Shown here in pieces: positions 36,671 to 38,923 of a stretch of DNA of 64,000 nucleotides. Source of the DNA: Trypanosoma brucei (lineage: Eukaryota). How positions within the stretch are numbered: position 1 is the stretch's first letter; the number at the start of each line of letters is the position of its first letter. Position numbers and translations under genes: made by a program. The stretch is from assembly GCA_000002445.1 (NCBI GenBank), contig CP000067.1, positions 672,001 to 736,000 on the forward strand. The letters are read 5' to 3'. The notes beneath the pieces were generated by a model. That model had not been told where the DNA came from, ran no database searches, and saw nothing but the letters and a program-made list of their open reading frames with translations.

Positions 36671-38923
36671 ATGAGCGAAGAAGTAGATTGGTTGGGAAAC
36701 GGGGGATTCTTTTCTTCCACCGTAATAGAAGTGGCCGTAATCAGACACCATAATATCGGGAAGAAAAAGGAGGAGGTCATCACCTCCATGCAACCACCTT
36801 CACCAACTGTATCCTTCATTGAATATGTCCTTTTGGCACTTGAGCTTCCACCAAACATGTTTGTCTCCAAACTGGCCGCGTGCTGCACGATGCTTTTCCT
36901 AACGCGCTCAGACCCAAAGCTCCTACGGGAGTTGTGTAGAAAGTGGGTAATACGATTCAAAAAAGATCGGCACCTGATTATTTCCCGGATTCGGGAAAGC
37001 ACAAGGAGTGCTAATTGCTCTGATATGTACTCGAGAGCATCCATGGATAGTGTTGTCGAGAATCTTCCGGGCTCAGATGAGTGTGACCCACAGAACTGTA
37101 TGGAACATTTTCTTCACCTGATCAACACGTTTGTGCCGGAGTATTTTTCTTGGAATTGGCACCACACAGAGTTGATGATTCAAACCAATAGAAAGTCGGA
37201 GGACTTTGTACGCGAAAGGCTGCTTCCACTCTGTAGGAATAGCAGCGAGGATGCTGATGGATTGGATGACGAGGATAAGGACAAGGACGAAGCTCTGGCG
37301 TCCTTTTTTCTTAGTAAACGGCCTGCGGATACTCGGGGCTTTAACAAATGCGAAGAAGCATGGACAAACGGCCTCGAAAACCCTGAGCGGCCCCCTCTTG
37401 AAAGGTATGCATCGCGCATTCGTTTCGCAACATTCAGCAACCTCCGCAACTGTTTCCGCCAGTCACCACATGGCGTGGTGCTCATATTTCACGCTAACTA
37501 TTCTTCAAAGAGTTGCGAGACGCTGAGGACCTTTGAGGAAATTCTCATGAAACAGATGCTGAACCCTCAACCACAGGTGTGTGTTGTTCACATTGTTGCA
37601 GAGCCTGAACTCGCGCGCTTATATCAAATAAATTGGTTCCCAACGATCATCTATGTGCCACCGCTATCCCAACCGAAGAGCGGCCCATTGCTGGAAGTTG
37701 TAGAGTCTAACACCAATGGTAATGGTTGTTCATTCAACCAAGTGCGCACGAGTAACGGTACGCCTACCATTCGGGGCACTGGGGGTGAAGCCGATGATGT
37801 ATCATGCGACGCATTGCCACCAGTGCGTCTGGTGTCATCGGATGCGGAGGAGTCAAGCGATGATTCCCCCTGTGCAGCAAGTCCATTGCAAGAAGAGGAA
37901 ATATCACCCTCTGTTAAACATAAGAAGCACCGTGTGTATCCGCCAGAAGGTGACTTATCGGCTCCGTCGCTTGCAAAGTGGATAAATAGCAGAGGTTCCG
38001 TAGCACAGCTGATGCCTGCGGATAATCGTGCGGTTTCACGCATTAATCAGCTCCCTGAAAGGAAGGGATTTCCGAATGGTTTGAAGCATTCGTCGTCGAG
38101 GGACTCTCTGCAGACGTTGAGTTCCTCTGCGGAGGCGGCGGATTCTCATGAAACCAGCGCAAAGGCACCGGTGTTCATTTTTCTGGGAGGAGGTGTGGCT
38201 GCAGGGAAAAGCACTGTAGTGTCTGTGCTTTCTGGTAGTTTATGGTGGGAGGAGCACAAGGCAAATAGCGTCATCATTAGTGCTGATAACTACAAGAGCC
38301 AGAGTTACCTGGTATCGAATGACATGGAGAAGCAGCACGAGTATAGCACACGTTTGGCAGAGGAACTCATGGTGAGAGCAGTGAATGGGAGGCGCAGCAT
38401 TGTGTTTGATAGTACAATGATGTGGAAACCGTTTGTTCAGCAGGTGATTGATATGGTGCGCAATTCCCATCGTGTGCTGTACGAACAGGGACCGGGCTAT
38501 CGGGATGGTGGAAAAGTGGAAGAATACTTTAGGACGGTGGGACCACGGTCAGAGTCTCACCTTCCACCATATGTAATTCGACTCTTAGCAATAACGGTTG
38601 AGCCTGAAGTTGCGGTACGCCGCGGAATCCTTCGCAACTTCTCAACAGGACGAAGCGTGCCTATCAAAACTCAACTTCGCTCCTTCCGCCTATTTGCAGA
38701 GAACTTTGTGGAATATGTTTCCCTAGTAGATGAAGCTACGTTGTACAACAACAATGTGATTGTTGACCTCGAGAAGGGCGAACTTCCGCCGGTGGTAGCG
38801 GAAAAGCGGGAGGGGAAACTGGTGGTAGTTGATCACGACGCCTATGCACTTTTCTTAGGACAACGGGGGTTAAATGAAAATGCTGGGAATGCACTTGAGC
38901 TCTACAACCCCAAGCAATCCTAA
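36671..38923 (+). CDS. Hypothetical protein with a C-terminal zeta-toxin-like P-loop kinase domain (Walker A GGGVAAGKST) and an N-terminal region of unknown function
   Basis: ATG-initiated 2.25 kb ORF. At about 38166-38700 it reads PVFIFLGGGVAAGKSTVVSVL, then VIISADNYKSQSY, then IVFDSTMMWKPF, then LLAITVEPEVAVRRGILR. This order mirrors the zeta-toxin / UNAG-kinase fold: P-loop, then hhhD-x-D, then hhh[DE]GT, then the hhhA-T-pE lid helix. The N-terminal half is non-repetitive and has a Cys-containing segment (VVLIFHANYSSKSCETL ... NWFPTIIYVPP) that vaguely resembles a thioredoxin-like fold. Confidence 0.6.
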   Translation: MSEEVDWLGNGGFFSSTVIEVAVIRHHNIGKKKEEVITSMQPPSPTVSFIEYVLLALELPPNMFVSKLAACCTMLFLTRSDPKLLRELCRKWVIRFKKDRHLIISRIRESTRSANCSDMYSRASMDSVVENLPGSDECDPQNCMEHFLHLINTFVPEYFSWNWHHTELMIQTNRKSEDFVRERLLPLCRNSSEDADGLDDEDKDKDEALASFFLSKRPADTRGFNKCEEAWTNGLENPERPPLERYASRIRFATFSNLRNCFRQSPHGVVLIFHANYSSKSCETLRTFEEILMKQMLNPQPQVCVVHIVAEPELARLYQINWFPTIIYVPPLSQPKSGPLLEVVESNTNGNGCSFNQVRTSNGTPTIRGTGGEADDVSCDALPPVRLVSSDAEESSDDSPCAASPLQEEEISPSVKHKKHRVYPPEGDLSAPSLAKWINSRGSVAQLMPADNRAVSRINQLPERKGFPNGLKHSSSRDSLQTLSSSAEAADSHETSAKAPVFIFLGGGVAAGKSTVVSVLSGSLWWEEHKANSVIISADNYKSQSYLVSNDMEKQHEYSTRLAEELMVRAVNGRRSIVFDSTMMWKPFVQQVIDMVRNSHRVLYEQGPGYRDGGKVEEYFRTVGPRSESHLPPYVIRLLAITVEPEVAVRRGILRNFSTGRSVPIKTQLRSFRLFAENFVEYVSLVDEATLYNNNVIVDLEKGELPPVVAEKREGKLVVVDHDAYALFLGQRGLNENAGNALELYNPKQS

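Follow-up and report, generated by a model that had tools for sequence, protein, structure and literature searches.

Gene model and domain layout

The window, that is the whole 64,000-nucleotide stretch of Trypanosoma brucei DNA analysed here, contains an open reading frame of 750 aa at 36671..38923 (+), as the sequence-only reading had claimed. The frame is present, but its most likely product is a 711-aa protein starting at ATG 36788. ATG 36671 is directly preceded by a pyrimidine-rich tract (36587-36670), and the first AG after this tract, at 36674, is a candidate trans-splice acceptor. The Met at ATG 36788 is the common start of all orthologues aligned. The 711-aa product is 100% identical to an annotated T. 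equiperdum protein of 711 aa, ‘Zeta toxin, putative’. Due to the tract abutting ATG 36671, the position of the AG, the orthologue starts, and this annotation, the start is most likely ATG 36788. The 5' extension is probably not translated, and the 750-aa frame is probably too long at its N-terminus. The features of the gene are as follows.

36671..36787 (+): in-frame 5' extension of the mechanical 750-aa frame, absent from every orthologue
36788..38923 (+): most likely coding sequence of the Trypanozoon ‘Zeta toxin, putative’ gene, 711 codons plus stop, translation checked
36788..37237 (+): N-terminal helical module, aa 1-150, all-helical in the AlphaFold model (pLDDT 70-89)
37142-37159 (+): conserved YFSWNW motif in the helical module
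37415..37660 (+): thioredoxin fold, first part, aa 210-291, beta1-alpha1-beta2-alpha2-beta3-alpha3-beta4
37502-37516 (+): degenerate thioredoxin active site SSKSC
37634-37645 (+): thioredoxin cis-Pro motif WFPT
37673..37921 (+): disordered insert within the thioredoxin fold, aa 296-378 (pLDDT about 22-38)
37925..37996 (+): thioredoxin fold, second part, aa 380-403, beta5-alpha4, HRVYPPEGDLSAPSLAKWINSRG
37997..38167 (+): linker ahead of the kinase domain, aa 404-460 (low pLDDT)
38168..38911 (+): NADKc / zeta-type P-loop kinase domain, aa 461-708

The gene product would be a three-part cytosolic-type enzyme, with a helical module, a thioredoxin fold lacking CxxC, and a C-terminal P-loop kinase. 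The helical module is strongly conserved across kinetoplastids and has no Pfam match. An earlier claim of a thioredoxin-like Cys segment in the N-terminal region was half right. The predicted structure shows the thioredoxin fold in full, conserved cis-Pro included, but CxxC is lost and replaced by S239-S-K-S242 followed by Cys. Ser242 is invariant in trypanosomatids, and the following Cys occurs in Trypanosoma only. The W-F-P285-T motif is also invariant in trypanosomatids and aligns with [FY]-P-T of CxxC-bearing relatives. The Pfam Thioredoxin profile (PF00085) gave no match above threshold on the trypanosome protein, and its fold is homologous via intermediates to Pfam-positive thioredoxin domains in relatives. 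Compared with the PF00085 family, about 85 disordered residues are inserted between beta4 and beta5. This insert (aa 296-378) is poorly conserved, and its length and sequence differ among orthologues. The linker contains a basic helix-like segment which is conserved in other trypanosomes and diverged in the T. brucei group, and for several relatives from outside the trypanosomatids it lies within the region matched. The kinase domain had been placed at 38160-38710, which is too small. The domain extends from about 38168 up to 38911, with conservation in relatives reaching its very end.

The neighbours of the kinase gene are a pyroglutamyl peptidase gene, whose claimed adjacency was confirmed by a Peptidase_C15 Pfam match, and a gene for an HMGL-like/EF-hand protein (Pfam). 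All genes in the window lie on one strand in a trypanosomatid gene array, so the adjacency to the peptidase has no operon-like meaning. The position of the kinase gene is conserved in Phytomonas. The small ORFs flanking it have no Pfam match, no Rfam match was found anywhere in the window, and our literature search returned nothing on the T. brucei gene itself. The domain assignment had been presented as new. The gene already bears the name ‘Zeta toxin, putative’. A paper and a vaccine-oriented preprint on the toxin idea deal with Ldzeta1, very probably its orthologue in Leishmania.

Fold and catalytic residues of the kinase domain

The assignment to a zeta/PezT/AvrRxo1-type P-loop small-molecule kinase was borne out by Pfam, sequence profiles, and fold. 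The resemblance far exceeds chance: Pfam PF06414 (Zeta_toxin) matched with E=3.5e-13, and its score of 49.9 bits, or 54.5 bits for the C-terminal part alone, lies well above the gathering cut-off of 22.3. The match spans only profile positions 6-118 of 199. AAA_33 and CoaE scored under their thresholds. The three-dimensional fold of the domain is nearer to the zeta/PezT/AvrRxo1 structures than to generic nucleotide kinases, and in the PDB profile search no solved structure matched the sequence better than zeta and PezT. AvrRxo1 (PDB 4Z8Q) was never detected by sequence profile against the PDB and was found by fold search only. All four motifs quoted in the sequence-only reading are present in the kinase domain.

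38180-38215 (+): Walker A motif FLGGGVAAGKST
38186..38215 (+): Walker A / P-loop GGGVAAGKST with Lys474, aligned to the zeta/PezT P-loop
38270-38302 (+): VIISADNYKSQ
38282..38296 (+): ADNYK motif with Asp500, the predicted catalytic base
38399-38425 (+): IVFDSTMMW
38408..38425 (+): DSTMMW (Asp541, Thr543, Trp546), counterpart of zeta E116-G-T118-G-R120
38582-38635 (+): lid helix motif LLAITVEPEVAVRRGILR
38621..38653 (+): lid segment RGILRNFSTGR (Arg612, Arg616, Arg622), after strand 150-157 of the domain model

The proposed equivalences of these motifs hold for the first two with PezT, by HMMER, and for the third with zeta; the fourth, the lid, is covered by the fold only. Sequence alignments to zeta/PezT end at about the DxT motif, and the remainder of the domain is covered by fold comparison alone. 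The GGG...GK of the P-loop and A-D-x-x-K are invariant throughout the family, as are D, T, and W of DSTMMW, whose plant version is DGTLSW. HMMER aligned Asp500 to zeta D67 / PezT D66, the Asp which contacts the acceptor hydroxyl (PMC3062530). The corresponding AvrRxo1 residue in the literature is D193. Walker A Lys474 (zeta K46), Asp500, and Thr543 (zeta T118) are all conserved, and Glu at the zeta E100 position is conserved in kinetoplastids. Arg612, Arg616, and Arg622 are invariant in kinetoplastids, protists, and plants, and the domain model suggests that this segment is equivalent to the zeta lid arginines.

The loss of the thioredoxin cysteines raises the question of whether the kinase is dead as well. 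A catalytically dead pseudo-kinase with a scaffold role would parallel the thioredoxin domain, which clearly lacks its catalytic cysteines, and in the T. brucei group the P-loop Val is unusual and the pre-kinase linker has diverged. However, the family-invariant kinase residues are all intact (P-loop GK, Asp500, Lys503, His517, Thr543, and Arg612/616/622). The kinase is also the best-conserved part of the protein, with a mean column identity of 54% in the kinase-domain alignment vs 37% over the full length. We consider a pseudo-kinase highly improbable and rejected it on the intact catalytic residues.

Relation to plant NADKc and phyletic spread

When the full protein and its C-terminal part were used in word-indexed searches for homologues, only close kinetoplastid relatives came back. 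It took a diverse alignment and an exhaustive search by profile to reveal the link to plants. Over 100 proteins of land plants matched with E about 1e-75 to 1e-85, many of them named ‘calmodulin calcium-dependent NAD kinase’. Identity of the kinase domain to land-plant NADKc is 32-37% over about 250 residues. In BLASTP, the domain matched Salvia NADKc with E=2e-38 over 252 of 265 residues (11-262) at 34% identity, a level too low to settle substrate specificity. When the kinetoplastid and plant alignments were compared profile to profile (hhalign), the probability was 100 and E=9.6e-58 over 260 columns. The bacterial zeta and PezT structures (PDB 1GVN, 3Q8X, 2P5T), which represent toxins of epsilon-zeta type II toxin-antitoxin systems, in contrast show 16-19% identity with E=7e-4 to 2e-9, in the N-terminal half only. 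The trypanosome kinase and NADKc have in common GGGMxxGKS, (E)ADxFK, VHxxS, DGTxxW, GPGY, the RGIxR...GR lid, and LxSH/F. The profile and fold searches found no characterised kinase with greater specific similarity. By sequence comparison, the closest characterised relative of the trypanosome kinase is plant NADKc, not a bacterial toxin. NADKc (Arabidopsis At1g04280) is an NAD+-specific kinase with a kcat of about 40 per second, and its activity depends in an all-or-none manner on an N-terminal calmodulin-binding region (Dell'Aglio et al. 2019, 10.1101/521658).

Kinetoplastids retain 32 of the 38 columns which are invariant in plants and protists, every motif residue included. The other six are altered, and two of these lie beside the catalytic Asp. 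The lineage-wide changes are EADAFK to N/S-A-D-D/N-F/Y-K, T to V at the zeta T128 equivalent, and YW to YF. On another reading, which we regard as unlikely, the changes around the catalytic Asp have retuned an active family kinase to an acceptor which is neither NAD+ nor UNAG, such as NADH, NAAD, ADP-ribose, a dinucleotide, or a nucleic-acid 5'-OH end. The retained columns, with all motif residues among them, count against such an enzyme, as does the similarity to NADKc, which no other characterised kinase exceeds.

The family had been thought rare in eukaryotes, which was not borne out. The exhaustive profile search found 1207 related representative clusters, 445 of them at E<=1e-10. Relatives with an obtainable source organism, a minority of the clusters, are all eukaryotic, namely land plants, green algae, Euglena, an amoebozoan, and a choanoflagellate. 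A scan of prokaryotic genomes gave two matches, one of them actinobacterial; these do not measure the prokaryotic distribution of the family because one single Walker-A pattern was used. The fusion had likewise been described as an oddity, whereas thioredoxin followed by kinase is a conserved eukaryotic architecture. We found no paper describing this fusion in the literature searched. A plant-dominated match list of 107 proteins showed no thioredoxin fold in any member. The N-terminal helical module matched the plant NADKc N-terminus weakly (E=0.002-0.04), and there is a weak but consistent alignment of its YFxxxW block to YFAFHW of plant NADKc and to the thioredoxin-kinase group. The upstream YFxxxW block is possibly common to NADKc and the trypanosome protein.

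Acceptor, regulation, and comparison with known systems

The acceptors used within this fold, with the same catalytic core, include UNAG, other UDP-sugars, and the 3' and 2' positions of NAD. A genuine zeta-toxin-type kinase would phosphorylate UDP-GlcNAc or another UDP-sugar and act as a growth-restraining or ‘suicide’ factor. The Pfam class Zeta_toxin, the rank of zeta and PezT among solved structures, and the conservation in kinetoplastids of the catalytic Asp, the zeta T118 Thr, and the zeta E100 Glu are consistent with such an enzyme. So is the work on L. donovani Ldzeta1 (LdBPK_341740.1), of which the trypanosome gene is very probably the orthologue judging from the sequences. UNAG kinase and ATP-binding activity have been reported for Ldzeta1, amastigotes over-expressing its domain reportedly grow with a delay, and its publication treats the protein as a zeta toxin of prokaryote-like type (Srivastava et al. 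2019, FEBS Lett 593:1223).

The UNAG site itself argues otherwise. Zeta binds UNAG through T118, R120, E100, and T128, with Arg120 binding the UDP phosphates (PMC3062530). The equivalents of T118 and E100 are present in the trypanosome kinase. However, R120 falls on the second Met of DSTMMW, a variable position conserved nowhere in the family, and in trypanosomatids Val takes the place of T128, the uracil contact. The earlier suggestion of a UNAG kinase is weakened because the UDP-phosphate-binding Arg120 is replaced by Met. The kinase domain is also far closer to an NAD+-specific kinase, and no antitoxin partner is found among the Pfam-scanned neighbours. Broad conservation of the family across free-living eukaryotes also speaks for a housekeeping or regulatory enzyme more than for a toxin. 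The Ldzeta1 ‘domain’ of the preprint comprises 118 aa from Walker A to about the DxT motif, and lacks the invariant lid arginines. We judge a zeta-type UDP-sugar kinase quite improbable, and the comparison with NADKc does not favour the prokaryote-like zeta-toxin interpretation of Ldzeta1.

A toxin of a toxin-antitoxin pair was rejected. No antitoxin-like domain or ORF (epsilon/PezA) was found near the kinase gene by Pfam or among the flanking ORFs, the gene lies in a one-strand eukaryotic array, and its position is conserved in Phytomonas. The trypanosome kinase is not a toxin-antitoxin toxin.

We favour, with moderate confidence, a regulated NADKc-type small-molecule kinase which belongs to the eukaryotic family including At1g04280, has NAD+ as its most likely acceptor, and is no toxin-antitoxin toxin. 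NAD kinase activity is the better supported of the two substrate suggestions made earlier, with the NAD+ substrate inferred by homology. From the observed folds, motif conservation, homology, architecture, and orthology, we infer the substrate, the catalytic roles of the residues, and the regulation as follows. Lys474 of the P-loop would hold the ATP phosphates, Asp500 would deprotonate the ribose hydroxyl of the acceptor, and Thr543 and the lid arginines 612, 616, and 622 would position the phosphates. The reaction would most likely convert NAD+ to NADP+. A canonical NAD kinase is present in Leishmania (PMC6430020), and the enzyme may provide a second, regulated NADP(H) route beside the canonical trypanosomatid one. 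By analogy with NADKc, the N-terminal region probably controls the kinase. In relatives with an intact thioredoxin CxxC, this control may be redox-dependent, and trypanosomatids may have lost the redox chemistry and kept the fold as a structural or binding module.

The kinetoplastid substitutions next to Asp500 and the UNAG kinase activity reported for Ldzeta1 count against the NADKc-type reading.

The main gain of the analysis is a re-assignment of the domain, away from bacterial toxins and to the side of an experimentally proven NAD+ kinase. Should the enzyme produce NADP+, trypanosomatids would possess a further supply of this cofactor, probably under regulation, and the ‘eukaryotic toxin-antitoxin’ interpretation of Ldzeta1 would be due for revisiting. 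NADP(H) feeds trypanothione reductase and antioxidant defence, so a second source, if true, would be relevant to drug-target thinking. The conservation of the thioredoxin-kinase fusion in many protists offers a testable hypothesis of redox-controlled NADP+ synthesis. More tentatively, and with somewhat less than even confidence, we propose a widespread undescribed eukaryotic class of thioredoxin-fused NADKc-type NAD+ kinases. A redox-active thioredoxin would gate NADP+ synthesis in this class, plants would have swapped to calmodulin, trypanosomatids would have kept the fold and lost the cysteines, and the trypanosomatid ‘zeta toxin’, Ldzeta1 included, would be a mis-assigned NAD kinase rather than a toxin with UNAG kinase activity. 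Trypanosomatids have a trypanothione-based redox system. Such a class, if true, would tie oxidative stress directly to NADP(H) supply.

Among known systems, NADKc and the trypanosome protein are alike in placing a C-terminal kinase behind an N-terminal region, which is regulatory in NADKc. Plant NADKc carries a calmodulin-binding site and an N-terminal membrane anchor, whereas a thioredoxin fold precedes the kinase in the trypanosome protein. The gene on an L. donovani draft contig has the same three modules in about 1009-1020 codons, on a contig with frameshifts. The published Ldzeta1 has 1014 aa, a domain start at 744, and the residues L747 and S752. The L. donovani gene has Leu and Ser at about 746 and 751; a first offset match of these positions in a mis-spliced gene model was not significant. 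Ldzeta1 is about 300 residues longer than the trypanosome protein through expanded disordered linkers, and its thioredoxin-like site, FSAKSN, has no Cys at all. AvrRxo1 is a secreted Xanthomonas effector that has an antitoxin or chaperone of its own. As an NAD 3'-kinase it yields 3'-NADP, not the coenzyme 2'-NADP. Compared with bacterial zeta and PezT, which are stand-alone toxins, the trypanosome kinase is part of a eukaryotic multi-domain protein.

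Gene model and genomic setting

The window holds a trypanosomatid gene array on a single strand, with all large ORFs on the + strand. The ORF at 36671-38923 (+) was found as the sequence-only reading had described it, with all four quoted motifs in place. The product matches a 711-aa Trypanosoma equiperdum protein with 100% identity, and that protein carries the name "Zeta toxin, putative". The observation holds, yet it re-discovers an existing annotation, and the novelty claimed for the domain assignment falls away. The claimed size of 750 aa is probably too large, given the T. 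equiperdum product and the Met encoded at 36788, which is the start in every orthologue. The mechanical ORF has 39 additional N-terminal residues, which are probably untranslated. A pyrimidine-rich tract (36587-36670) directly precedes ATG 36671; the first AG beyond the tract, at 36674, is a candidate acceptor that may be used for trans-splicing.

Genes in the window
22735 and 44452: DEAD-box helicases
25795-29742, +: 1315-aa TPR and IQ-motif protein
30481-32262: RCC1-repeat protein, upstream of the zeta gene
35403-36134, +: pyroglutamyl peptidase ORF
36788-38923, +: "zeta toxin" gene, likely CDS
40728-42134, +: HMGL-like and EF-hand protein
47312-49723, +: kinesin
50823-51506, +: p25-alpha family protein

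In the pyroglutamyl peptidase ORF, the match to Pfam Peptidase_C15 is confined to aa 179-215 (E=5e-6); the ORF's listed GTG start is mechanical, and the real start is likely ATG 35466 (MKPTKPLLYITGYGPF). Downstream, the 40728-42134 product combines an HMGL-like domain (PF00682, E=2.7e-25) with a C-terminal EF-hand pair (PF13499, aa 373-430) and would be a calcium-binding HMG-CoA-lyase-like protein, an uncommon domain pairing. Low GC (0.33-0.36 versus ~0.47 elsewhere) at 12001-14000, 32001-34000, 52001-54000 and 56001-58000 coincides with long inter-ORF gaps, presumably long intergenic or UTR regions.

The zeta-type kinase domain and its probable Leishmania orthologue

The proposed zeta-type kinase was borne out. 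Pfam Zeta_toxin matched the window protein at E=3.5e-13, exceeding its gathering score, AAA_33 and CoaE were both under theirs, and the bacterial toxin kinases PezT and zeta were the top sequence matches among solved structures (PDB), so the best matches are not generic kinases only. For PezT/zeta the E-value was 0.018 when the single sequence was the query, 7e-4 for a kinetoplastid profile and 2e-9 / 2e-6 for a broader family profile; the P-loop proteins ranked next, which are unrelated, scored 1.7e-3. HMMER aligned Asp500 (numbered on the 711-aa protein) with zeta D67 / PezT D66, the catalytic base in contact with the acceptor hydroxyl (PMC3062530), and Thr543 with zeta T118. The sequence alignment ends at the DxT motif, and the Pfam profile is therefore covered only at positions 6-118 of 199. 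P-loop Lys474 would bind ATP, Asp500 would activate a ribose hydroxyl of the acceptor, and Thr543 with the invariant lid arginines 612, 616 and 622 would hold the phosphates. With these catalytic residues intact, a pseudo-kinase is very improbable.

In the P-loop (38186-38215; GGGVAAGK) the T. brucei group has Val at a position that is Met or Ile in almost all of ~150 relatives. The pre-kinase linker of this group (38039-38125; LPERKGFPNGLKHSSSRDSLQTL) has diverged much further than its conserved counterpart in other trypanosomes (LREEAKFKKYRDLISAVVMLRQL).

The window gene is very probably the orthologue of Ldzeta1 of Leishmania donovani. As published, Ldzeta1 has 1014 aa, a zeta domain at residues 744-861, and L747 / S752. 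One representative match (P0035) is an L. donovani gene model misnamed "amastin", whose draft contig holds a frameshifted gene that shares the three modules of the window protein. This gene has about 1009-1020 codons (nt 290 to about 3316-3349), PLVDTISS ahead of the P-loop, and Leu and Ser at about 746 and 751 (±3, indels). Synteny is partly kept: in Phytomonas, as in the window, an RCC1-like gene lies upstream and a kinesin gene downstream. The public L. donovani entry TPP51895.1 (2400 aa), listed as "Amastin surface glycofamily protein", is a mis-fused model on a draft contig with many frameshifts (L004:290-3349, contig RHLC01000005.1, GCA_003730215.1); the Ldzeta1 orthologue makes up its N-terminal part, and the true amastin genes are found downstream.

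UDP-GlcNAc (UNAG) kinase activity is reported for Ldzeta1, and the same activity here is possible, though unlikely. The residue with which zeta holds the UDP phosphates of UNAG, Arg120 (PMC3062530), is missing: its counterpart is a variable position (DSTMMW in the window, DGTLSW in plants), followed by a Trp invariant family-wide. Also against it are the much closer kinship with NADKc (the calmodulin-dependent NAD+ kinase of plants), the absence of an antitoxin and the broad conservation in eukaryotes. Neither Pfam searches of window ORFs and neighbouring small ORFs nor the one-strand array gave any support for a toxin-antitoxin arrangement.

The N-terminal region and its thioredoxin fold

The N-terminal structure model covers residues 1-446.

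Features of the model
1-150: helical module, confident
161-209: disordered stretch
211-290: beta-alpha-beta-alpha-beta-alpha-beta unit
296-378: disordered insert
382-402: beta-alpha pair

The suggested "thioredoxin-like Cys segment" is right as to the fold, which keeps its cis-Pro (WFPT), and wrong as to the cysteines: the CxxC position reads S239-S-K-S242, and the active site is gone. Euglena, Clydonella, Salpingoeca and many environmental sequences have an intact YCxxC, all with Pfam Thioredoxin and Zeta_toxin; an intermediate kinetoplastid-related group has CxxS, Trypanosoma has SxxS with a subsequent Cys, and Leishmaniinae are without any Cys. Of the 150 best-ranked representatives, 97 carry 150 or more residues ahead of the P-loop (26 with CxxC, 33 degraded, 38 with no thioredoxin detected). 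This makes thioredoxin plus kinase a conserved eukaryotic architecture, of which the trypanosomatid protein is a redox-dead derivative. Thioredoxin was found in 0 of 107 proteins in a plant-dominated list of matches. The YFxxxW block of the helical module aligns in register, but weakly, with plant NADKc (YFAFHW) and the thioredoxin-kinase group.

In giant proteins of environmental eukaryotes (P0033/P0175, P0133, P0135; 2300-2827 aa) this kinase domain lies deep within the sequence, in some cases together with kinetoplastid-type N-terminal and thioredoxin-like modules; they may be true multidomain proteins or products of gene-model fusion.

Relation to plant NADKc

The window gene belongs to the NADKc / zeta-type kinase family, whose eukaryotic members are not rare, contrary to the earlier claim. 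An exhaustive profile search gave 1207 representative clusters (445 with E<=1e-10), most matching the kinase domain only, yet along its full length. All relatives with an obtainable source organism are eukaryotic (a minority of clusters carry a name), including Lotmaria, Papus, Euglena gracilis, Clydonella (Amoebozoa), Mesostigma and Salpingoeca. In a single-pattern scan, which is not a census, the prokaryotic loci that both showed the eukaryote-type P-loop signature and encoded a relative (28% identity) numbered only two: L002:3001-3642 (Plantactinospora sonchi), spanning domain residues 15-260, and L003:3001-3330 (Planctomycetaceae MAG). Horizontal transfer is one possible origin for them; alternatively, they may represent the family's bacterial root.

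A diverse domain alignment as query matched >100 land-plant proteins with E-values of about 1e-75 to 1e-85; many of these bear the name "calmodulin calcium-dependent NAD kinase". BLASTP against Salvia NADKc gave E=2e-38 and 34% identity over residues 11-262 of 265, and kinetoplastid-plant profile-profile comparison gave probability 100 and E=9.6e-58 over 260 columns. The plant enzyme purified as calmodulin-dependent NAD+ kinase is NADKc (At1g04280). It is NAD+-specific, inactive on NADH or NAAD, with a rate of about 40 per second and an N-terminal region acting as an all-or-none switch (10.1101/521658).

From the observed folds, conserved catalytic residues, homology and architecture, an NADKc-type NAD+ kinase is the main explanation, which we favor with slightly better than even confidence. 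NADKc homology and structural kinship with AvrRxo1, a Xanthomonas NAD 3'-kinase effector, make NAD+ the most likely acceptor, and by analogy with NADKc, control of the kinase probably lies with the N-terminal region. Of the 38 columns that are invariant across 15 plant sequences and at least 15 of 16 from protists and algae, 32 are unchanged in the trypanosome protein. The six changes are kinetoplastid-wide and two flank the catalytic Asp, a real caveat on substrate specificity; an active kinase retuned by these substitutions to another acceptor is improbable, if less so than a UNAG kinase. Leishmania also has a canonical "ATP-NAD kinase-like protein" (PMC6430020), so the predicted NADKc-type enzyme would be a second, regulated NADP+ source, as in plants.

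Thus the fold, the thioredoxin fold and NAD as candidate substrate stand from the sequence-only reading; rarity, novelty, the Cys segment and the protein size do not. Our literature search found no paper tying the trypanosomatid "zeta toxin" or the thioredoxin-kinase fusion to NADKc, and the added value is therefore this re-assignment, with a testable redox-gating hypothesis. Judged by sequence, the closest characterised relative of the trypanosome kinase domain is plant NADKc, not a bacterial toxin: the domain is 32-37% identical to the land-plant proteins over 94-97% of its length, whereas identity to zeta/PezT is 16-19%, in an alignment that stops at the DxT motif.
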